Assembly: GCA_964601935.1 (NCBI GenBank)
Contig: CAZROP010000003.1
Coordinates: forward strand, 3,366 to 67,365
From: an uncultured Candidatus Saccharibacteria bacterium
Lineage (GTDB): Bacteria > Patescibacteriota > Minisyncoccia > Phycocordibacterales > UBA1006
DNA length: 64,000 nucleotides
Reading direction: 5' to 3'
Part shown: one piece after another, positions 27,673-40,316 of the stretch
Numbering within the stretch: the stretch's first letter is position 1
Layout of the letters: the number at the start of each line of letters is the position of its first letter
Translations under genes and position numbers: made by a program
The notes under the pieces: model-generated
What the model was told of the DNA's origin: nothing
Databases searched by the model: none
What the model saw: only the letters and a program-made list of their open reading frames with translations

Positions 27673-28131
27673 CTATTCCTCCAGTACCGCTATGCGATAC
27701 ATGCGCCCGATTTCGATACGTTCGCCCAGCTTCTGCATGGATTCCTCCAACAGTCCATGAATCGTGATGTCAGGATTCATCAGGAATGATTCTTCCATGA
27801 TAGTATCTGCTGTCGATCCCATTGCGGTGACATGCATCGCGATATGCTTGCCCAATTCGACAAAATCTTCATTCTTTGCAACAAAGTCCGTCTCGCACAA
27901 TAGCTCCAACATGGTGCCCACTGTTTTGTTGCTGTGTACATAGGTGGTGATGGCGCCGGCGCCTAATACTCGGTCTGCCTTTTTCGCGCTCTGTCCTGCT
28001 GAAAACTCGCGCAACACTTCGCGTGCGCGTTCCATGTCGCCGTTCGCTGCCTCGAGGGCTTCTTTACACTTTGCTACTGAAACTCCCGTTTCTTCTCGTA
28101 GCTGTTTTACTAGGTCAATTGAAATTTCCAT
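27673..28131 (-). CDS. tsf: Elongation factor Ts (short form)
   Basis: The N-terminal UBA-like sequence LVKQLREETGVSVAKCKEALEAANGDMERAREVLR and the ...CETDFVAKNEDF motif are present. Confidence 0.85.
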   Translation of the reverse strand: MEISIDLVKQLREETGVSVAKCKEALEAANGDMERAREVLREFSAGQSAKKADRVLGAGAITTYVHSNKTVGTMLELLCETDFVAKNEDFVELGKHIAMHVTAMGSTADTIMEESFLMNPDITIHGLLEESMQKLGERIEIGRMYRIAVLEE

Positions 28132-28364: not shown

Positions 28365-28955
28365 ATGAAAAAGTATAAGCTCTCTGAAATCGCAGATATC
28401 CGACTAGGTTATGCTTTTCGTAGTGCGGTTGAGCCAGATCCAAATGGGAATTGTGTCGTTATTCAGGCAAATAATGTGCGTTCAGCAATAGAAGTTGACC
28501 ATAATGGCAGCCTCGTGAGGTGTAGCTTGAACCTGGGTGGTAATCCTCCTTATGCCGCACAGGGGGATGTATTTCTTTCATCTCGTGGATTTGGATTAGG
28601 GTCATATAGTTCTGCTGTGTATACTGGCCAGTCAGAAAAAGTCCTAGTGTCTGCTTCATTATTCATTATTCGTTTGACGGACGTCGGCAAGCAACTAGCT
28701 ACTCCTCATTATATCTCTGGTTTCTTCCGTTCTCCTGTAGGACAGAAATTGCTGGTAGATAGATCGTCAGGCTCTCATGTTCAAACGCTATCCCGCACCG
28801 CTCTGGGTGAAATCGAGATCGTACTACCTGATATTGAAAGACAAAATTCGATTATTGATCTGCAAGAATGCGCACGATACAAGCATGAAGGCTATCGCAG
28901 GAAAATACGACTCGAAACAGAAATTATCAATTCATTATTTACTAGTGTAATATGA
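28365..28955 (+). CDS. hsdS: Type I restriction-modification specificity subunit, half-size (single target-recognition domain)
   Basis: KLSEIADIRLGYAF at the N-terminus of the TRD and the conserved distal helix region LPDIERQNSIIDLQE are present. At 196 aa this is half the usual HsdS length. Confidence 0.65.
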   Translation: MKKYKLSEIADIRLGYAFRSAVEPDPNGNCVVIQANNVRSAIEVDHNGSLVRCSLNLGGNPPYAAQGDVFLSSRGFGLGSYSSAVYTGQSEKVLVSASLFIIRLTDVGKQLATPHYISGFFRSPVGQKLLVDRSSGSHVQTLSRTALGEIEIVLPDIERQNSIIDLQECARYKHEGYRRKIRLETEIINSLFTSVI

Positions 28956-29281
28956 GTACTAAAGCAGAAAAAACAATAAGTGAATCAATGAAGGTGGAGG
29001 TTGCCTTTCCTGGGTGCGTTCATGTCGAATTAGTGCAAGCGAACGATTTGAAACATTATGAGATATTTCTGTGGTTAGTTTCGCTGATGGCCTCGATCGC
29101 TTCTGGGTTTTGGGTGTCCTATGTGTGTACAGCGCCTGTTGATAATGCTATTGGTTGGTCCGCTGTTGCATTTACAGTACTAACTCTCGTATTTGGATCG
29201 ATTGCGTATTACTACAGATCTAGGATCAACGATACAAAGATAAAAAAGACATTCTTACTTGAAAGCTTTAATAACAAATAA
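28952..29281 (+). CDS. Small 2-TM membrane protein of unknown function, translationally coupled to the R-M operon
   Basis: An ATGA overlap with the upstream hsdS stop. It has two hydrophobic helices and ends 5 nt before the hsdM start. Confidence 0.4.
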   Translation: MSTKAEKTISESMKVEVAFPGCVHVELVQANDLKHYEIFLWLVSLMASIASGFWVSYVCTAPVDNAIGWSAVAFTVLTLVFGSIAYYYRSRINDTKIKKTFLLESFNNK

Positions 29282-29285
29282 ACAT

Positions 29286-30797
29286 ATGAACAACAAAAAA
29301 TACACACAAGAAGACCTCAACAAAATCCTTTGGGACGCAGCGGATTCTTCTCGTACACAGGTGGATGCCGGAATCTACAAGGACTACGTGCTTGCGATTC
29401 TTTTCTTCAAATACCTGAGCGACCTCTCGAAGAAAAAGCTCAACGAGTACAAGGAGCGTTTCGGGAACGATGAAAAGCGTACCGAAGAAAAAATGAAGCT
29501 CGATCGATTCTATCTTCCTCCGAAGTCGTCATTTGATTACATCTATTCAATCATTGAGCAGGACAATCTTGGTGAGGAAATAAACAAAGCACTTCATCGT
29601 ATTGAGGATGCCAACAAGGAAAAGCTTGACGGTGTATTTTCTGTAGATTTCAACTCAGAATCAACTCTTGGAAAACTTGCGGAACGAAATAAAATGCTTC
29701 GTCATCTTATACAGGACTTCGCAAAGATGGATCTCGCTGATGTGAATGACGACATCATCGGAAATTCGTACATGTACATGATCGAACGCTTTGGAGCCGA
29801 TGCTGGTAAAAAAGCTGGAGAATTTTTCACTGTGCGTAACGTTGCAAAGCTTGTGGCAAAGCTCGCAGAACCAAAGGCCGGTGCTCGTATCTGTGACCCT
29901 TGTGCTGGATCTGGAGGCCTCCTCCTTCTTGCTGGTGAAGAAGTTGAAAAGCAGGGTTCAAAGAACTACGCTCTCTATGGACAAGAATCAACAGGTTCAA
30001 CATATCAACTCGCTCGTATGAACATGTTCCTTCACGGAAAGGACTCAGCACGTATCGAATGGGGCGACACGCTCAATAATCCACTCCTTGTAGAAAATGA
30101 TCAGCTCATGAAGTTCGACACGATCGTTGCGAATCCTCCATTCTCTCTCAAAAAATGGGGTGCCGAGCATGCTGATGCAGATAAGTACAAGCGATTCTGG
30201 CGCGGTACTCCACCAAAGGATAAGGGTGATTTTGCATTCATCGCTCACATGGTTGAAGCAGCAAAGCCAAAGACTGGTCGCATCGCAGTCATTGTTCCGC
30301 ACGGCGTTCTTTTCCGAGGTGGTGCCGAAGGTAAGATTCGCGAACAACTTCTTAAAGAGAACATTGTCGAGGCAGTCATCGGACTTCCTGCAGGACTTTT
30401 CCAGACAACTGGTATTCCCGTAGCTGTCCTTGTAATTGATCGTTCAAGAGAAAAAGGTGGAGCAAATGAAAACAAAAAAGATGTCTTCTTCATCGAAGCG
30501 TCAAAGGAGTTTAAGTCAAACAAAGCTCAGAATATTCTTACCGATGAAAATATCGAGAAGATTTACTCTACGTACAAAACTCGAAAGGACGTAGCGAAGT
30601 TCGCTCGCAAGGTAAGTCTCAAGGAAATCGAGGAGAATGATTTCAATCTCAACATCACTCGTTATGTGGACACATTCACAGAGGAAGCCCCCGTAGATAT
30701 CAAAGCAAACTTGAAGGAGCTTGCTGAGCTTGAGCCACAGCTCGAGAAGCTTGAGAAACAAATGGTCGTATATCTAAAGGAACTAGGAATCAAATAA
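29286..30797 (+). CDS. hsdM: Type I restriction-modification N6-adenine DNA methyltransferase subunit M
   Basis: The HsdM N-terminal domain (LWDAADSSR....YKDYVLAILFFKYLSD), the AdoMet motif I (CDPCAGSGG) and the catalytic NPPF (VANPPFSLKKW) are present. Confidence 0.9.
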   Translation: MNNKKYTQEDLNKILWDAADSSRTQVDAGIYKDYVLAILFFKYLSDLSKKKLNEYKERFGNDEKRTEEKMKLDRFYLPPKSSFDYIYSIIEQDNLGEEINKALHRIEDANKEKLDGVFSVDFNSESTLGKLAERNKMLRHLIQDFAKMDLADVNDDIIGNSYMYMIERFGADAGKKAGEFFTVRNVAKLVAKLAEPKAGARICDPCAGSGGLLLLAGEEVEKQGSKNYALYGQESTGSTYQLARMNMFLHGKDSARIEWGDTLNNPLLVENDQLMKFDTIVANPPFSLKKWGAEHADADKYKRFWRGTPPKDKGDFAFIAHMVEAAKPKTGRIAVIVPHGVLFRGGAEGKIREQLLKENIVEAVIGLPAGLFQTTGIPVAVLVIDRSREKGGANENKKDVFFIEASKEFKSNKAQNILTDENIEKIYSTYKTRKDVAKFARKVSLKEIEENDFNLNITRYVDTFTEEAPVDIKANLKELAELEPQLEKLEKQMVVYLKELGIK

Positions 30798-30801
30798 ATA
30801 T

Positions 30802-31302
30802 ATGGCAGATACAAAAAGACAAGTTTTCTATAGTTTCCACTATAAGCCAGATGCGTGGCGTGTTTCTCAGGTTCGAAATATCGGAACTATTGAGGGTAAC
30901 AAACCTGCTCCAGATAACGATTGGGAAACTGTTACAAAGGGTGGTGATGAGGCTATAAAGAAATGGATCAAAGACCAGATGAAGTATCGATCTTGCACTG
31001 TTGTTCTCGTTGGAAAAGATACTGCCAACCGAAAGTGGATAAACCATGAAATTGTCGAGTCATGGAAGGCTGGTATGGGTGTTGTTGCGATTCATATATA
31101 CGGTTTGAAAAATCACGACGGCTACATCACCACTCAGGGAAGTAATCCATTTGATTACATATCTTACGGAGACAAAAAGCTCTCTTCGATTGCCAAATGC
31201 TATAACCCTGCAGGAACCAATAGCAAAGAAAGATATGACTGGATTTCACGGAACATGTCAGCCATGGTCGAAGAAGCTGTAAAAATCAGAAATAACAATT
31301 AA
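30802..31302 (+). CDS. ThsB-like TIR-domain protein (Thoeris ThsB / DUF1863 TIR-like family)
   Basis: KRQVFYSFHYKPDAWRVSQVRN...CTVVLVGKDTANRKWINHEIVES...VVAIHIYGLKNHDGYITTQGSNPFDYISY aligns with my recollection of B. cereus ThsB (KRVFFSFHYQDVIDFRVNVVRN...VTCVLIGSQTFNRRWVRYEIMKS...IIGIHINAFKDKYGNIKSKGPNPFDYLGY). That includes the putative catalytic Glu in (Y/H)EI. Confidence 0.65.
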   Translation: MADTKRQVFYSFHYKPDAWRVSQVRNIGTIEGNKPAPDNDWETVTKGGDEAIKKWIKDQMKYRSCTVVLVGKDTANRKWINHEIVESWKAGMGVVAIHIYGLKNHDGYITTQGSNPFDYISYGDKKLSSIAKCYNPAGTNSKERYDWISRNMSAMVEEAVKIRNNN

Positions 31303-31307
31303 TATTT

Positions 31308-31712
31308 ATGAGTACAAACGAAAAAAGACTAAAGCATTTGGAACTGATACAAGGAGTGATAACGAGAATGGGTAGTAACCTATTCACTCTTCGTGGGTGG
31401 ATGATAACGCTCGTTGTTGGTCTCTCTGTGGCTTTCTTGGAAGTTGGCCGCAACGAGCTGCAAGTAATATTGGTTCTAGTTATTTTGATATTCTGGGTAC
31501 ATGATGCTTATTTTCTCTCCCTGGAGCGTGGATACCGATGCTTGTACAACAAAGTAAGGAAGTTGGATGAGGATGCTATTGATTTCTCAATGGATATTTC
31601 AGAGTTTGATGTTTTGAAAACAATATCAATTTGGTACTGCATGTGGTCTAAGACATTGTCCTTTTTCTATGTACCGACACTAATATTAATAGCCCTAATA
31701 AGTATATTCTAG
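31308..31712 (+). CDS. Small 3-TM membrane protein. Candidate pore-forming effector (SLATT-like?) of the TIR cassette
   Basis: 134 aa with an amphipathic N-terminal helix, TM1 (LFTLRGWMITLVVGLSVAFL), TM2 (VILVLVILIFWVHDAYFL), a ~45-aa loop and a C-terminal TM (FFYVPTLILIALISIF). It is tightly packed between two TIR genes. The effector role is inference. Confidence 0.45.
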   Translation: MSTNEKRLKHLELIQGVITRMGSNLFTLRGWMITLVVGLSVAFLEVGRNELQVILVLVILIFWVHDAYFLSLERGYRCLYNKVRKLDEDAIDFSMDISEFDVLKTISIWYCMWSKTLSFFYVPTLILIALISIF

Positions 31713-31714
31713 CC

Positions 31715-32401
31715 ATGGATACATCTCGAAAAATATTTGTTTGCTATAAATACAAAGATTGGGGTGTTCAGCCTCTTGTTGAATATACGCCGACAGAGGA
31801 CACAGACTATCTCCACACACCTCGACATTATGTCGATAAAATAATAGAAGTTGTTGGAGCTGATCATATCTATAAAGGAGAGCGAAGTGGTGAAAGTATG
31901 GGAGATTTGGCGGACGACACCATTGACTCAAAGCTCAAAGAGAAAATCTTCGACAGCTCTGTCACTGTCGTGCTGATCTCGCCAAATATGTTTGACAGGT
32001 CAACATTAGAAAAAGATCAGTGGATCCCTAACGAAATTTCCTACTCACTCCGCTATAAAACTAGAGGATATAGAACAAGTAATCCAAATGCGATGCTTGC
32101 AGTAGTTCTGCCTGATAGAAATGGTAGCTATGATTATGCTGTGGTCCATCAAAATTGTGTGACAACATGGCGCACAGATACCTATTTTACTATCCTGAAC
32201 GAAAATATGTTCAATAGAAAAAGCAAGAATCAAAGACCTTGTGGTACATGCGGCAGTCACCACCATTTTGGAGATGATCATTCATATATTCACCCAGTCA
32301 AATGGTCTGACTTCATTTCTAACCACAATATCTATATCGATCATGCTTTATCACTAAGAGAAAACTTGCATCATTTCGATATCACAAAAATGCACGATTA
32401 A
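31715..32401 (+). CDS. Second TIR-like (DUF1863/ThsB-type) domain protein with a Cys/His-rich C-terminal extension
   Basis: KIFVCYKYKD...SSVTVVLISPNMFDRS...QWIPNEISYSL follows the TIR-like signature (F.SY..D....VVLIS.N...S.W...EI.Y.L). The C-terminus is CGTCGSHHHFGDDHSYIHP. Confidence 0.5.
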   Translation: MDTSRKIFVCYKYKDWGVQPLVEYTPTEDTDYLHTPRHYVDKIIEVVGADHIYKGERSGESMGDLADDTIDSKLKEKIFDSSVTVVLISPNMFDRSTLEKDQWIPNEISYSLRYKTRGYRTSNPNAMLAVVLPDRNGSYDYAVVHQNCVTTWRTDTYFTILNENMFNRKSKNQRPCGTCGSHHHFGDDHSYIHPVKWSDFISNHNIYIDHALSLRENLHHFDITKMHD

Positions 32402-34081: not shown

Positions 34082-37000
34082 ATGTCACTCACAAACGTAA
34101 ATTTCGATGAAGCCAAGCAGTCACAGCTCCCATTCGTTGAGCTCCTGTTGAACATGGGCTACACATATGTTTCTGTTGCCGAAGCGCTCAGACAGCGAGG
34201 TGATACTTCGAACTTCATCCTTGCTGACATTGCAACAGAAAGGCTCATGGAGATAAACGGTTACGAGGTTGATGGTACCGAATACAAATTCAGCGAGAAG
34301 GATGTACGAGATGCTATCGACGAACTTGAGCACATCCAGTATGAGGGACTTATTGATACCGCTCAGAAAGTTTACAACATAATCATGCCGACAAGCGGAG
34401 GTAAGACGATCAAGGTGAATCACGGGGGCAAGAAGGTATCTAAGAACTTTAAGTTCATCGACTTCGAGAACATCGAGAAGAATGCTTTTCATGTATCTGT
34501 GGAATATGTCGCTAGTGGCAAGCAGAATATTCGTCCTGATATCGTTGTTTTTGTAAACGGTATCCCTTTTGCAGTGATTGAGAATAAGAAATCTAGTGTT
34601 GCCGTAGCTGAGGCACTCAACCAAATGAACCGTAATCAGGGTCCAGAATTCTGTCCGAAGCTTTTTACCTATACTCAGTTACTCGTTGCGACCAATGGCA
34701 AGGAGTTGCAGTATGGGACGACTGGCACACCAAACAAGTTCTATGCAGTTTGGAAAGAGAAAGGCACAGATTTGAAAACACTCAATACTCAGGTGTCTAC
34801 CTTGATCAAAAAGAAAATTGAACCCACCGTATATGCACAGTTGTTGCAAGACCTGAACGGATATACTGATGGCCATAAACAGCGAACAAGTAGGCTTCCG
34901 ACAGAGCAGGATCGAGGAGTATTTTCGTTATTTGAACCAAAACGACTACTGGATCTGACCAAGAACTATATTCTGTTCGACGCAGGTGTAAAGAAACTCT
35001 CACGATACCAGCAGTATTTTGCTATTCACAAGATGCTCAAGCGTGTAGAAGAGGAGGAGATTACTGACCATGGCATTACTCGCCGTAAGGGCGGACTGGT
35101 GTGGCATACTCAAGGATCAGGTAAATCGCTGACTATGGTGATGTTTGTGAAGGCGCTCATTGAAGATCCGCATATCCTCAATCCTCGCGTGATTATTGTC
35201 ACTGATCGTCGGGATTTGGATAAGCAAATCAAAGATACCTTCAAAAACTGCAACCTCAAGAAAGAGGTTGTTCAGGCTACCAGCGGTCAAAACCTCATTG
35301 ATCTCATCAAGGAGAAGGACTTGTCCGTCGTCACTACGCTCGTTCAGAAGTTTGAATCAGCTGCAAAGAAGAGCGTGGGGTTTGTGGATGATGACAAGAA
35401 CATTTTTGTTCTCATTGACGAAGCACACCGAAGTCAGAACGGTATGGCAAACTTCGAGATGAATAGAATCATCCCGAATGCGTGTTACATCGGATTCACA
35501 GGTACTCCACTTATGAAGAAGGACCGAGAGAGTTGGAAGAAGTTCGGTGACTACATCGACAGGTACACGATCGATGACGCCTTGGCTGACAAGATTATTC
35601 TTCCGCTTATTTACGAAGGTCGATATGTCGACTTGATTCAGAATGCTGAACAAATTGATCGTAGGGTTTCCAGAATTACTGATGGCTTGAGTGATAAACA
35701 AAAGAAGGAGTTACAGAAATTTGCCGGGACAAAGCTGATCAAGAGTAACCCGAATAGAATTGCAGAGATTGCGATCGACGTCGAAAATCACTTCGTTCAA
35801 AATTTCCAAGGCACAGGGCTCAAGGCTCAGCTGGTCGCACCTTCAAAGTTCTCTGCTGTATTGTTTCAGAAGTCTTTTGAAGCAAGCGGCAAAGTCCGTA
35901 CTGCGGTAATTATTTCTGATGAACACGAGGATGGCGATGATGAAAACCTCCACAAGAAAGAGGTCGTTGGGTACCTAGAGGGAATTCGCAAGAATCATAG
36001 CAGTGTTGAGAAATACGAAAAAGACGTCGTCGATAGTTTTAAGTATAACGATGATGGTATCGAAATCATTATTGTGGTAGACAAACTACTTACAGGGTTT
36101 GATGCGCCGCGAAATACGGTACTCTACCTCGCGAAGGATTTACGAGATCATAACCTACTCCAGGCTATCGCTCGTGTGAATCGACTGTACGAGAACAAGA
36201 AAGAGAAGCCGAAGACCGCAGGATATATCATGGATTATTCTGAAAATGCAAAGAATATCGATACTGCAATGAAGCTCTTTGGCAACTATGATGAAGGAGA
36301 TGTCAGGGGAACACTTATTGATGTATCTGAGAAGATACAGGAGCTCGAACAGAGTTACTCGCTAGTTCATGATCTATTCAAGGAAATAAAGGGATCGTCT
36401 GACGATGAGGAGTATTTACAATTCCTGGCAGACCAGCCAAAAAGAGAGACATTTTACAAGACCCTTAATGCATTTATAAAGAATTTGAGTGAATGTTTTG
36501 TGCTGCAAGATTTTGTTCATGAGTTCAAGCATCTCGACCTCTATAAGCGTGAGTTAAAGAAGTTTGCTGAATTGCGCAAGTCGGCAAGTCTGCAGTATGC
36601 TGATCGTGTTGATTTACTCGAATACAAGCAGTCACTCATTAATATCCTCGATAGGTATGTGGATGCTCGTGGTGTCGAATTGCTCACAAAACAAGTCAAT
36701 ATTACAGACAGGGCACAGTTTGAGCAAGCGGTAGCTAACCTAGGGTCAGACAAATCAAAAGCGGAAGCAATTGCTGCACAAACCGAAAAAACTATCACAG
36801 AAAAGATGGATAGTGATCCTGAATTTTACGAGAAGTTTTCAAAAAAGATTTCAGAGATTCTGGAGAAAATGCGCCAAGGAAAGCTTGCTGATGTGGAAGC
36901 GCTGAAACAAATGAAGGTGATTAGTAGTGACGTCGTGAATAAAAAAGACGAAAGCCTGCCCGAGAAGATTGAGTCACAGAAGGGGGCAGACGTATTTTAT

Positions 37001-37273
37001 CGTAATATTCGAGCAGGGCTTGATGGACTGAATCTGGACGAGGACACCTATATCTCTATAGTTCTCGATATCTTTTCTATCATCAAGAATGAAGCAATTG
37101 TAGACTGGTACAAGAATGGCGATGTGAAGCGCAAAATACGAAACAGCATCGATGATTATCTGTATGATGTTGTAAGAGGTGAAAAAGCTATTGATATTGA
37201 TAATGATCGTATTAGATCGATTATAGATACTGTATTGCATTTGGCAGAACATAACTTCGAATTGTTCATCTAA
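34082..37273 (+). CDS. hsdR: Type I restriction enzyme R subunit (endonuclease/helicase)
   Basis: The N-terminal PD-(D/E)xK nuclease (RPDIVVFVNGIPFAVIENKK), SF2 helicase motif I (TQGSGKSLTMV), motif II (LIDEAHRSQ), QxxR, and the long C-terminal helical domain are present. Confidence 0.9.
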   Translation: MSLTNVNFDEAKQSQLPFVELLLNMGYTYVSVAEALRQRGDTSNFILADIATERLMEINGYEVDGTEYKFSEKDVRDAIDELEHIQYEGLIDTAQKVYNIIMPTSGGKTIKVNHGGKKVSKNFKFIDFENIEKNAFHVSVEYVASGKQNIRPDIVVFVNGIPFAVIENKKSSVAVAEALNQMNRNQGPEFCPKLFTYTQLLVATNGKELQYGTTGTPNKFYAVWKEKGTDLKTLNTQVSTLIKKKIEPTVYAQLLQDLNGYTDGHKQRTSRLPTEQDRGVFSLFEPKRLLDLTKNYILFDAGVKKLSRYQQYFAIHKMLKRVEEEEITDHGITRRKGGLVWHTQGSGKSLTMVMFVKALIEDPHILNPRVIIVTDRRDLDKQIKDTFKNCNLKKEVVQATSGQNLIDLIKEKDLSVVTTLVQKFESAAKKSVGFVDDDKNIFVLIDEAHRSQNGMANFEMNRIIPNACYIGFTGTPLMKKDRESWKKFGDYIDRYTIDDALADKIILPLIYEGRYVDLIQNAEQIDRRVSRITDGLSDKQKKELQKFAGTKLIKSNPNRIAEIAIDVENHFVQNFQGTGLKAQLVAPSKFSAVLFQKSFEASGKVRTAVIISDEHEDGDDENLHKKEVVGYLEGIRKNHSSVEKYEKDVVDSFKYNDDGIEIIIVVDKLLTGFDAPRNTVLYLAKDLRDHNLLQAIARVNRLYENKKEKPKTAGYIMDYSENAKNIDTAMKLFGNYDEGDVRGTLIDVSEKIQELEQSYSLVHDLFKEIKGSSDDEEYLQFLADQPKRETFYKTLNAFIKNLSECFVLQDFVHEFKHLDLYKRELKKFAELRKSASLQYADRVDLLEYKQSLINILDRYVDARGVELLTKQVNITDRAQFEQAVANLGSDKSKAEAIAAQTEKTITEKMDSDPEFYEKFSKKISEILEKMRQGKLADVEALKQMKVISSDVVNKKDESLPEKIESQKGADVFYRNIRAGLDGLNLDEDTYISIVLDIFSIIKNEAIVDWYKNGDVKRKIRNSIDDYLYDVVRGEKAIDIDNDRIRSIIDTVLHLAEHNFELFI

Positions 37274-37277
37274 CCTT

Positions 37278-37982
37278 ATGAAAGAATTCATATTTGGAAC
37301 GTTTATATATGAATACCAACTTTTAAAACAAGATCGTAAAACGCTCTCCCTCACTGTTACCCCAGACCTACGTATTATCGTTAAGTGTCCACAGGCTGCA
37401 GATGATGACCGTATTGAAGCCTTCTTACAAAAGAAGTGGTTCTGGCTTGAGAAGCAACTTTCGTTCTTTAAAAAGTATCAGCGCAAAATGTATGAAAAAG
37501 AGTATGTGTCCGGAGAAGGTTATTTGTATTTGGGTAGACAGTACAAGCTCATTGTTCGAAGGGCTAAAGAAGATTCCGTCTCTCTCACTCGTGGTCAGTT
37601 AGTTGTTCTTACGACAAAGTTAGTTACCGACGGAAAACACAACAAAAAACTTATTGAGGGTTGGTTTGCTGAGAAAACTAGCATCATATTTCAAGATAGA
37701 TTTACTGAAATGCTCAAACGCTTTGATTTTAAGAGTCTTCCAAGGATGTCCACTCGAGGAATGAAGAAGCGTTGGGGTAGTTTCTTGAACCAAGACAAGA
37801 TATTTCTGAATCCGAAACTAATCCACACCTCAAAGGACTGTATTGATTATGTTATCGTTCATGAACTCTGTCATATGAAGTACAAGAATCACGACAAAAA
37901 GTTCTTTGATTTCCTTGACCAAAAGTTTCCTAAGTGGAAAAAGGTAAAGGAAAAGCTTGAAATCATGGGTTCATACTTTTAG
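37278..37982 (+). CDS. YgjP-like (DUF45 / M48-family) zinc metallohydrolase associated with Type I R-M
   Basis: The HExxH motif (VIVHELCHMKYKNHDKKF) is present. The gene is translationally coupled 4 nt after hsdR. YgjP-like genes are a known accessory of hsdR loci. Confidence 0.7.
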   Translation: MKEFIFGTFIYEYQLLKQDRKTLSLTVTPDLRIIVKCPQAADDDRIEAFLQKKWFWLEKQLSFFKKYQRKMYEKEYVSGEGYLYLGRQYKLIVRRAKEDSVSLTRGQLVVLTTKLVTDGKHNKKLIEGWFAEKTSIIFQDRFTEMLKRFDFKSLPRMSTRGMKKRWGSFLNQDKIFLNPKLIHTSKDCIDYVIVHELCHMKYKNHDKKFFDFLDQKFPKWKKVKEKLEIMGSYF

Positions 37983-38591: not shown

Positions 38592-39089
38592 ATGGACAAG
38601 AAGCTCGAACTCATACGATATATTCTGAGTCGGCTAGACGGCGGCGTTGCCGATTTATGGAAGATTTATAAACTAATGTACTTCATTGATTTTGCGTTTT
38701 ACGCTGAACATAAAAAGTCCTTATCAGGAGCAGAATATTATAACTGGCAGTATGGACCGGTTCCTATGAATCAGCAACAGTACTTGATCGAGAATTTGAT
38801 CGAATCAGGAGAAGGGTTAGGGTTGTGGAGAAAAGTGGATCAGAAGTCAGTTCAGGTAAATAATCCTGTGGTAGATAAGGATGGTTTTAATAGCGAAGAG
38901 GTGGCTGTGATTGACGGCGTCTTGTCAAAGTATGGAGGATTGACCGGTAGAGAATTGGTGACGTTGTCACATGAAGACATACCCTGGAAAATGACAAAAG
39001 AAGGAGAAAAAATAGAATATGACTATGTATTTTGGCGAGAAACAGAACCTGTAGAAATTCAGGACATCACTGATCAAGTTTTGAAATAA
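38592..39089 (+). CDS. Panacea-domain (DUF4065, SocA/PanA-like) putative antitoxin
   Basis: LELIRYILSRL.....DLWKIYKLMYFIDFAFYAEHKKSLSGAEYYNWQYGPVP matches the DUF4065 pattern (K..K.LY.....G.....Y..GP). Confidence 0.6.
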   Translation: MDKKLELIRYILSRLDGGVADLWKIYKLMYFIDFAFYAEHKKSLSGAEYYNWQYGPVPMNQQQYLIENLIESGEGLGLWRKVDQKSVQVNNPVVDKDGFNSEEVAVIDGVLSKYGGLTGRELVTLSHEDIPWKMTKEGEKIEYDYVFWRETEPVEIQDITDQVLK

Positions 39090-39090
39090 T

Positions 39091-39459
39091 ATGTCGTCAG
39101 TCAAAGTTTCGACCAGGTTCGCAAAATCTCTCAAAGAGAATAGTAAACACAAAGGACTGGAAAAGGTGCTGGCTCTAAAACTTAAGGAGTTAGATAAGTA
39201 TTTTGATTTGTCATACAAAGTATTGCACAATGATGCTGATTGGTGTATCAAAAAGCTCGATGCAACAAGTACAATCGGGGCGTATCGAATCATTGCCGCA
39301 CGATCTACTGATGGTAAAAAGGTAGTATATGATTTTTACTTTAAAAACTCAAAACAAGACATGAATAAAGCCGAGTTACAAGAACTGGCTGAATTTATAT
39401 CATCCTGTGACTCCGAAGAGTTCTATGTAAATCTTGATGACTTTGTACTTGATAGTTAA
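39091..39459 (+). CDS. Hypothetical 122-aa protein, translationally coupled to the Panacea-domain gene. Candidate toxin partner
   Basis: It starts 2 nt after the upstream stop. I recognise no domain in it. The assignment rests on gene context alone. Confidence 0.35.
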   Translation: MSSVKVSTRFAKSLKENSKHKGLEKVLALKLKELDKYFDLSYKVLHNDADWCIKKLDATSTIGAYRIIAARSTDGKKVVYDFYFKNSKQDMNKAELQELAEFISSCDSEEFYVNLDDFVLDS

Positions 39460-39496: not shown

Positions 39497-40174
39497 TTAT
39501 TTCAACGCATCCAATAATGATGTAATGATGTAATGCACAGTTTGTGCATTGGCATCATTCGCCATGACTGGGTAGCCAGTCTGTGATATGTCACAGTCGG
39601 TATTTGCGATTGCAACTACAGGGATTTTCTTTGCATTACACTCTGCAACACAGATGTGTTCGTAGCGTGGATCGATAACGATCACTGCTCCAGGTACTGC
39701 CTCCAGGTGTTCGATTCCACCGAACTTTGATTCCAGATCCTCGATCTCACGATCGATCATCAGTTTTTCCTTTTTGGTTTTGTACGTCAGAGTGCCTGCA
39801 TCGCGGCCTTCTTTCAGCTTCTTCATCTTGTCGATACGGCGGCGGATTTCTGACCAGTTGGTGAGAGTTCCTCCGATCCATCGTTCAGTCACGCATGATA
39901 GGTGGCTGATGCGAGCGAGTCGAGCAACGATATCGCTGGTCTCTGGTTTGGTTCCAACGAGGATGATTGTTTTGCCTGATGCCTTTACCGATGCGAGCAT
40001 GGTTTTTGCATCTACGAGCTGCTTGCTGGTTGATTCCAGGTCGATGATGTCGATGCGGTTTTTCATCCCATAGAGATGAGGGATAACCGATGGGTGACGG
40101 CGTGAGCGCGAGTATCCCATGTGCGCACCGCGTTCGTACAGTGCCGATATTGTTTCCTGATGTGAATTTGACAT
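39497..40174 (-). CDS. rpsB: 30S ribosomal protein S2
   Basis: MSNSHQETISALYERGAHMGYSRSRRHPSVIPHLYGMKNRIDIIDLEST... matches S2 (HFGHQTR.WNPKM..YI.G.RN...IIDL). Confidence 0.9.
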   Translation of the reverse strand: MSNSHQETISALYERGAHMGYSRSRRHPSVIPHLYGMKNRIDIIDLESTSKQLVDAKTMLASVKASGKTIILVGTKPETSDIVARLARISHLSCVTERWIGGTLTNWSEIRRRIDKMKKLKEGRDAGTLTYKTKKEKLMIDREIEDLESKFGGIEHLEAVPGAVIVIDPRYEHICVAECNAKKIPVVAIANTDCDISQTGYPVMANDANAQTVHYIITSLLDALK

Positions 40175-40316
40175 GATTGTATATGTGTATTCTTTGCACA
40201 ATCCCGAATGATAATAGGGTGGGATCGTTATTAGCTACTAGGACAAAGAACTAACCCTCTATACACTACTGAAAAATGATGGTATTGCAAGGGGGCGAGA
40301 GGGGGAGGGTGACCAG

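Follow-up and report, generated by a model that had tools for sequence, protein, structure and literature searches.

Introduction

Type V Thoeris has been defined as the pairing of the TIR-domain protein ThsB with ThsF, a protein with three transmembrane (TM) helices labelled DUF2270 (Yirmiya et al., Dec 2025, bioRxiv 10.64898/2025.12.03.692087). Here we describe a three-gene cassette in which two ThsB-type TIR proteins of 166 and 228 residues, TIR1 and TIR2, flank a three-TM protein of 134 residues. It occupies positions 30,802 to 32,401 of a stretch of 64,000 nucleotides, hereafter the window, taken from contig CAZROP010000003.1 of an uncultured Candidatus Saccharibacteria bacterium (assembly GCA_964601935.1). 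We find that the cassette is very probably a type V Thoeris anti-phage system, composed of one thsF and two different thsB genes and carried as a passenger in a Type I restriction-modification (R-M) operon of a Patescibacteria (candidate phyla radiation, CPR) genome.

Type V systems from Bacillus thuringiensis DAR 81934 and Bacillus sp. 1NLA3E have been validated, and type V Thoeris protects Bacillus subtilis from phage (bioRxiv 10.64898/2025.12.03.692087). In the same study, type V ThsB was found to yield 3' cyclic ADP-ribose (3'cADPR) upon infection, this molecule was toxic to cells carrying the B. thuringiensis system, and the Tad1 sponge abolished defence; AlphaFold 3 (AF3) predicted a homo-heptameric ThsF channel whose inter-protomer pockets carry positive charge. 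Its authors also describe loci with multiple ThsBs and warn that their own effector annotations are representative-based and noisy.

A second line of work bears on this locus. Payne et al. (bioRxiv 10.1101/2024.01.29.577857) obtained the PDC candidates of PADLOC by screening genes that sit within BREX, DISARM and Type I R-M systems, and their supplement lists a cassette, CAS_00164 (FAM_00415>>FAM_00416), with a count of 57 and the assignment PDC-M50. In our literature search the name PDC-M50 was found only in this supplement, with no mention in a main text. The first-pass annotation of the window, a model's reading of the letters, had called both the TIR-TM-TIR combination and its embedding in a Type I R-M system undescribed. 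Neither claim survived: the TM protein is, judged by its sequence, a ThsF homologue, the TM and TIR pair corresponds to PDC-M50, and PDC-M50 itself came from a screen of genes embedded in such operons. Nesting in a Type I R-M operon is an already documented pattern.

Results

The 134-residue membrane protein resembles ThsF over its full length

We examined the product of the middle gene by hydropathy, structure prediction and homology. It contains three hydrophobic segments (residues about 25-46, 49-73 and 115-134), and its AlphaFold2 (AF2) monomer model (mean predicted local distance difference test score, pLDDT, 89.3) places helices at 5-46, 49-85 and 115-133, with a long N-terminal helix running into TM1, followed by TM2, a short structured loop and TM3. 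The open reading frames (ORFs), the Pfam and PADLOC matches of their products, hydropathy and the AF2 model together bear out the arrangement first annotated, in which two ThsB-type TIR proteins flank a three-TM protein.

The comparison with ThsF runs through the validated B. thuringiensis locus. The B. thuringiensis ThsB of Table S1 of Yirmiya et al. (IMG 2624526259) is 100% identical to protein P0271, and on both contigs that carry P0271 a gene for 141 residues starts 13 nt after it (on one of them L086:3773-4198), an order that agrees with the consecutive IMG identifiers of ThsB and ThsF in Table S2. Between the window protein and the L086:3773-4198 product we observed 44% identity over 130 residues (BLASTP, E = 8e-34), and the profile of the window protein's family aligned to the same product with an hhalign probability of 99.9% (E = 4e-37). 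The window protein also matches all four PADLOC PDC-M50A models (best E = 2.1e-38), as does the B. thuringiensis ThsF homologue. Because it shares full-length homology with the gene beside B. thuringiensis ThsB as well as these PDC-M50A matches, the 134-residue protein is, by sequence comparison, a clear homologue of ThsF, the type V Thoeris effector. The possibility, raised at the outset, that it might belong to an unrelated family with no link to defence did not materialize, as it falls in a known defence effector family.

General family databases were of little help with this protein, which has no significant Pfam or NCBIfam family. Its sole Pfam match, CoxIIa (E = 0.014), was taken as noise. 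Weak Pfam matches among 32 homologues were to DUF3278 (21 of 32, best E = 2e-4), DUF2270 (8 of 32) and 8xMP (3 of 32), none of which settles membership. A Foldseek search of the PDB with the AF2 model returned nothing at E ≤ 0.001, the best match being an uninformative ESCRT-III-like helical hairpin (E = 3.2).

The first-pass annotation had likened the protein to SLATT-type two-TM effectors, which partner ThsB in type VII Thoeris, so that a small membrane protein beside TIR genes might have pointed to that type. No SLATT family of Pfam matches the window protein at E ≤ 10, however, and none occurs among the 25 of 30 families listed at E ≤ 1 for the 32 homologues. Moreover, its three TM segments do not fit a two-TM effector, and its homology to ThsF is clear. 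With SLATT identity ruled out by the profile scans and the three-TM architecture, a type VII assignment is scarcely credible.

Four conserved arginines (R20, R74, R77 and R84) lie on the predicted cytoplasmic side of the 134-residue protein, and their placement is compatible with the basic inter-protomer pockets of a channel-like ring.

As a separate observation, some ThsF homologues found as representative-library matches are fused to N-terminal domains. One of these (P0232) has a Pfam 8xMP domain (PF24838, 'octameric membrane protein'; E = 1.6e-27) ahead of the ThsF part, and another (P0202) has a soluble domain of ~220 residues without a Pfam match. The validated ThsF homologue (L086:3773-4198) itself shows a weak full-length 8xMP match (E = 0.012), and there are hints that ThsF and 8xMP are remotely related.

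Both TIR proteins belong to ThsB families listed for type V Thoeris

TIR1 matches ThsB profiles of both Pfam and PADLOC (Pfam PF08937 ThsB_TIR, E = 3.2e-26; PADLOC ThsB PDLC00433, E = 1.5e-66; PDC-M50B, E = 9.8e-63). It is 73% and 68% identical to two TIR domains that Table S1 lists as 'DUF2270 - Type V' (IMG 2598686312 and 2546039240; cluster 2661146773). Glu83 of TIR1 aligns to the Glu of the YEI motif of B. cereus MSX-D12 ThsB, which we take to be the catalytic residue E85 of that protein. TIR2 scores 20.2 bits with Pfam PF08937, slightly short of the 21.2 required, yet its residues 4-226 cover positions 2-218 of the 219 in the PADLOC ThsB model PDLC00428 (E = 2.1e-68), and it is 46-48% identical, tail included, to 'DUF2270 - Type V' TIRs of cluster 2742576382. 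In the alignment with these proteins, E107 is invariant and C148 nearly so. The predicted catalytic Glu is kept in both TIRs, as E83 in TIR1 and E107 in TIR2.

TIR2 does carry the Cys/His-rich tail noted in the first reading of the sequence, but the accompanying remark that such a tail is not a ThsB feature was mistaken, as it is conserved in a known ThsB subfamily (Yirmiya cluster 2742576382) and PDLC00428 spans it. Moreover, the Table S1 pair IMG 2598686312 and 2598686314 flanks a single gene, which gives the same TIR-effector-TIR order as in the window.

We also considered the opposite division of labour, in which the TIR proteins would be toxic NAD+-depleting effectors and the membrane protein a sensor, anchor or immunity factor. 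Bacterial TIR domains do deplete NAD+ in CBASS, Pycsar and TIR-pAgo, and Yirmiya et al. warn that this mode of action may apply to some of the unverified TIR operons (bioRxiv 10.64898/2025.12.03.692087). However, the homologous type V ThsB alone makes 3'cADPR on infection, and both the toxicity of added 3'cADPR to system-bearing cells and the loss of defence with the Tad1 sponge speak against such a scheme; in addition, both window TIRs are of ThsB type by PF08937 and the PADLOC ThsB models. We therefore regard this division of labour as highly improbable.

Several observations weigh against assigning the cassette to type V Thoeris. Pfam PF10028 (DUF2270), the family behind the published label, gave no match at E ≤ 10 on the window protein or on the validated ThsF homologue, and the matches in 8 of the 32 family members were weak (best E = 0.005; the cut-off of the model is 25 bits); plasmid copies also stayed below threshold. 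The window ThsBs fall in TIR clusters other than those of the two experimentally validated type V ThsBs, and the cluster of TIR1 (2661146773) also holds ThsBs of type XI, whose product is unknown (bioRxiv 10.64898/2025.12.03.692087). Finally, the second validated type V system is not triggered by 3'cADPR (same source). The name 'DUF2270' looks like a loose label, apparently the outcome of remote representative-based annotation, and since PF10028 is not reached, the ThsF assignment rests on direct homology rather than on the Pfam family. The placement of the window ThsBs in other clusters, together with the validated type V system that does not respond to 3'cADPR, makes the identity of the signal in the window system uncertain.

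Relatives of the cassette occur with and without R-M genes

To place the cassette among its relatives, we used 80 genome loci found via the TM protein and annotated by phmmer with the window proteins. One or two ThsB genes adjoin the TM gene in 78 of the 80 loci, and of the two loci with the TM gene only, one is a truncated contig and one has an overlapping ORF call. The most frequent gene order is TM-TIR1 (43 loci), followed by TM-TIR2 (13), the window order TIR1-TM-TIR2 (8), TM-TIR2-TIR1 (6), TIR1-TM (5), TIR1-TM-TIR1 (2) and TM-TIR1-TIR1 (1).

In 25 of the 80 loci the cassette has Type I R-M genes beside it, and 14 of these show the order hsdM-[cassette]-hsdS; the 80 loci are the closest relatives among 177 found, so this R-M-embedded fraction is probably overstated. 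The remaining 55 have no R-M genes within 6 kb. Since R-M genes lie near no more than 25 of these loci, the cassette is independent of the R-M system, and as plasmid copies also stand alone, the system can be defined without R-M nesting. Two or more similarity classes can be told apart among the R-M operons that bear the cassette, with HsdM E values of about 1e-240 to 1e-290 versus about 1e-100. Within the R-M lineage of the window the ThsB set itself varies, with TIR1-TM-TIR1' in locus L006, TM-TIR2 in L005 and TIR1-TM in L015.

The recurrence of one insertion point invites the explanation that the cassette guards the Type I R-M system as the anticodon nuclease PrrC guards EcoprrI, with the ThsBs or ThsF sensing inhibition or failure of HsdMSR (for example by an anti-restriction protein) and not the phage directly. 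The shared hsdM|hsdS junction and the R-M flanks counted above speak for such a role, as do the clearly different classes of host R-M operon, the 2-5 nt gaps that imply co-transcription, and the precedent of PrrC, which is cited as almost solely embedded in Type I R-M (bioRxiv 10.1101/2024.01.29.577857). However, the majority of loci and the inspected plasmid copies carry the TM and ThsB genes without R-M nearby, embedded and free copies have the same ThsB types, and the B. thuringiensis homologue acts alone in B. subtilis and adjoins Gabija-like helicase/OLD genes, not R-M. Many unrelated defence systems, moreover, are R-M-embedded without functional coupling (Payne et al., bioRxiv 10.1101/2024.01.29.577857). 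On balance, a guard function is very unlikely, and we retain the reading of the cassette as a type V Thoeris passenger.

Beyond these loci, close relatives of the TM protein number in the hundreds; most come from metagenome-assembled genomes (MAGs) of Patescibacteria and none is Pfam-annotated. A search with the ThsF family profile recovered 4,898 representatives at the 50% identity level (E ≤ 1e-3). An exact-sequence query with the window TM protein itself matched no contig, whereas TIR proteins nearly identical to those of the window are recorded from MAGs named as Minisyncoccota and Moranbacteria. Homologues occur on 143 plasmid records, of which Klebsiella contributes 40 and E. coli 36. 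In the three plasmids that we inspected (Priestia, E. coli and Vibrio), a TM gene is followed by a TIR gene and R-M genes are absent. Homologues of type V ThsB on B. cereus and Priestia plasmids adjoin SIR2 or Macro effectors, so that this TIR cluster is common to several Thoeris types.

Two plasmid loci were unusual in composition. A Vibrio chagasii plasmid (L083; NZ_AP025467.1, 918-5129) has two tandem membrane-protein-plus-TIR modules, in the order of a 148-residue TM protein without a ThsF match, a 387-residue TIR protein, a 286-residue protein with a faint TIR signal, a ThsF homologue and a ThsB. On a Streptomyces plasmid (H16; NZ_CP108986.1, 208202-208582), a ThsF-like tblastn match (33% identity, E = 9e-9) overlaps or adjoins a gene annotated as a HIT domain-containing protein. 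As the HIT hydrolase is the type XI Thoeris effector, this site may be a mixed Thoeris locus.

A proposed mechanism for the cassette

We infer the steps of the mechanism by homology, starting from what the locus itself offers, namely homology, gene adjacency, catalytic residues and TM topology. Each ThsB TIR protein would sense a phage cue, upon which its conserved catalytic Glu would convert NAD+ to a cyclic ADP-ribose-type signal, 3'cADPR in the validated homologue. This signal would bind the cytoplasmic face of an oligomeric ThsF ring, a face presumably built from the loop at 73-112 and the amphipathic helix at the N terminus, which bear the four conserved arginines, and the three-TM ring would then breach the membrane and abort the infection. 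Nesting between hsdM and hsdS would give the cassette co-transcription and co-transfer with the R-M genes. By homology to type V Thoeris, TIR sensors with a signal-gated membrane effector remain the best model, as the initial annotation had supposed.

With two different ThsBs, the system can probably sense a wider range of phages, which fits the swapping of ThsBs among related loci and the multi-ThsB loci of Yirmiya et al. We consider it unlikely that the repeated hsdM|hsdS placement, seen in two or more divergent Type I R-M lineages, reflects functional coupling in addition to co-transfer, such as a PrrC-like back-up; were it so, the cassette could fire when the R-M complex is inhibited. Separately, the ThsF variant might answer a signal other than 3'cADPR, because TIR1 shares its cluster with type XI ThsBs, and to this we likewise give little weight.

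Gene layout of the operon and the surrounding window

The three cassette ORFs are co-directional and lie between hsdM and hsdS of the Type I R-M operon (Table 1), as coordinates and Pfam/PADLOC matches confirm. The gaps, given as 2-5 nt in the first annotation, measured 4 nt (hsdM-TIR1), 5 nt (TIR1-TM), 2 nt (TM-TIR2), 5 nt (TIR2-hsdS), 4 nt (hsdS-hsdR) and 4 nt (hsdR-ygjP). A scan for promoters and terminators found 32 promoter-like sites, compared to 29.3 expected from shuffled sequence, with no excess over chance. It is therefore the short gaps and the common strand on which the reading of a single operon from hsdM to ygjP is based.

Table 1 Genes of the cassette and of the Type I R-M operon that contains it, in window coordinates.
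Feature	Position	Strand	Evidence
half-size hsdS, single target-recognition domain, upstream of hsdM	28365-28955	+	Pfam Methylase_S E 1.5e-05; PADLOC Specificity_I E 1.2e-15
hsdM	29259-30797	+	Pfam N6_Mtase E 4.5e-100, HsdM_N E 4.1e-20; PADLOC MTase_I E 3e-124
thsB-1 (TIR1), ThsB-type TIR protein, 166 aa	30802-31302	+	ORF; Pfam PF08937, PADLOC
thsF homologue, 134 aa, three TM helices	31308-31712	+	BLASTP, hhalign, PADLOC PDC-M50A
thsB-2 (TIR2), ThsB-type TIR protein, 228 aa, C-terminal Cys/His region	31715-32401	+	PADLOC PDLC00428
hsdS, 556 aa	32407-34077	+	Pfam Methylase_S E 1.3e-44, two stretches; many PADLOC Specificity_I models
hsdR	34082-37273	+	Pfam HSDR_N, SWI2_SNF2, ResIII, T1R_D3-like; PADLOC REase_I E 2.7e-150
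ygjP-like metallopeptidase	37278-37982	+	Pfam YgjP-like E 1.9e-51

Several features of the R-M genes recur in related loci. The ygjP gene follows hsdR there too and is the usual last gene of such R-M operons, and the half-size hsdS upstream of hsdM is also found in loci L005, L006, L009, L015 and L044. The true start of hsdM is probably the ATG at 29286, 4 nt after the preceding ORF. This ORF (28952-29281) encodes 109 residues, with a hydrophobic core. It shares its first 4 nt with the end of the half-size hsdS and stops 4 nt before that ATG; its product matches no family and has no counterpart among the 80 related loci. HsdS has an extra N-terminal region of ~135 residues ahead of its first target-recognition domain, in which the hydrophobic stretch LAMQIMLAIGTGVISSAMWDVI may form a TM helix, and the HsdS of locus L006 is of similar length.

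The operon is part of a defence island of ~11 kb between tsf (27673-28131, minus strand) and rpsB (39497-40201, minus strand), genes that are usually neighbours in one operon. The island comprises the half-size hsdS, the small TM ORF, hsdM, the Thoeris cassette, hsdS, hsdR, ygjP, a cupin gene and a SocA-like pair. This pair (38592-39459) consists of a SocA/DUF4065-like antitoxin homologue (NCBIfam SocA_antitoxin, E = 2.5e-09, below cut-off) and, 1 nt after it, an ORF for 122 residues without a family; the two may form a toxin-antitoxin pair at the island end. The EF-Ts encoded by tsf is only 152 residues long and covers the first 143 of 293 positions of TIGR00116. At the start of the window, a 592-residue ORF (52-1830) contains a Peptidase_S74 (chaperone of endosialidase) domain (E = 3.5e-16), which is typical of phage tail-fibre or spike proteins.

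The first-pass annotation had also noted the absence of ThsA, and this was upheld. The cassette proteins contain no SIR2, SLOG or Macro domain by Pfam or PADLOC. For the rest of the window we searched the 40 other ORFs of at least 120 residues taken as genes, with overlapping antisense ORFs omitted, at E ≤ 1e-5. No ThsA, SIR2, SLOG or Macro model was among the seven PADLOC families matched by these ORFs, all of which were listed; the seven matches are to paralogues of housekeeping enzymes, none Thoeris-related. SIR2, SLOG and Macro were likewise missing from the 25 Pfam families listed of the 68 matched, so PADLOC serves as the complete check for ThsA. These 40 ORFs have housekeeping roles, with rpoB/C, ribosomal proteins, MreB, tRNA synthetases and DnaG as examples.

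Discussion

The locus has little import beyond annotation, as one more type V Thoeris / PDC-M50 locus, but three points are of modest use. The ThsF family is very large, common in Patescibacteria and invisible to Pfam and NCBIfam, and its members are therefore routinely left 'hypothetical'. Within one R-M lineage the ThsB complement varies while ThsF stays, which fits a view of ThsBs as exchangeable sensors. The hsdM|hsdS junction is a recurrent landing place of the cassette and could be used in studies of embedded defence systems.

Comparison with known systems

The anticodon nuclease PrrC of EcoprrI is likewise an additional defence module that lies among the hsd genes of a Type I R-M operon and is co-transcribed with them. 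PrrC is almost only found embedded and is regulated by the R-M complex, whereas cassettes of the window type are mostly free (55 of 80 loci) and a homologue works alone. With type I Thoeris (a SIR2-SLOG ThsA plus ThsB) and type II Thoeris (a Macro-TM effector plus ThsB), the cassette shares ThsB-type TIR sensors, often several per locus, and a separate effector, and both type II and type V kill via the membrane. Unlike the effectors of types I and II, the window effector is a 134-residue membrane protein without a recognisable soluble ligand-binding domain.

The likeness to PDC-M50 (PADLOC-DB v2.0.0) is that the window has PDC-M50A and PDC-M50B genes 5 nt apart and embedded in R-M; PDC-M50 is a two-gene candidate without experiment in Payne et al., and the window adds a second ThsB, of the PDLC00428 subfamily. 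Type V Thoeris shares several features with the cassette: its effector is a full-length homologue of the window protein with three TM helices in both, ThsA is absent, the window ThsBs lie in TIR clusters listed for type V, and the TIR-effector-TIR layout is implied in Table S1. The window cassette differs in lying in a Patescibacteria MAG and in being nested in a Type I R-M operon. It is thus a further example of type V Thoeris / PADLOC PDC-M50 and not a new kind of system.

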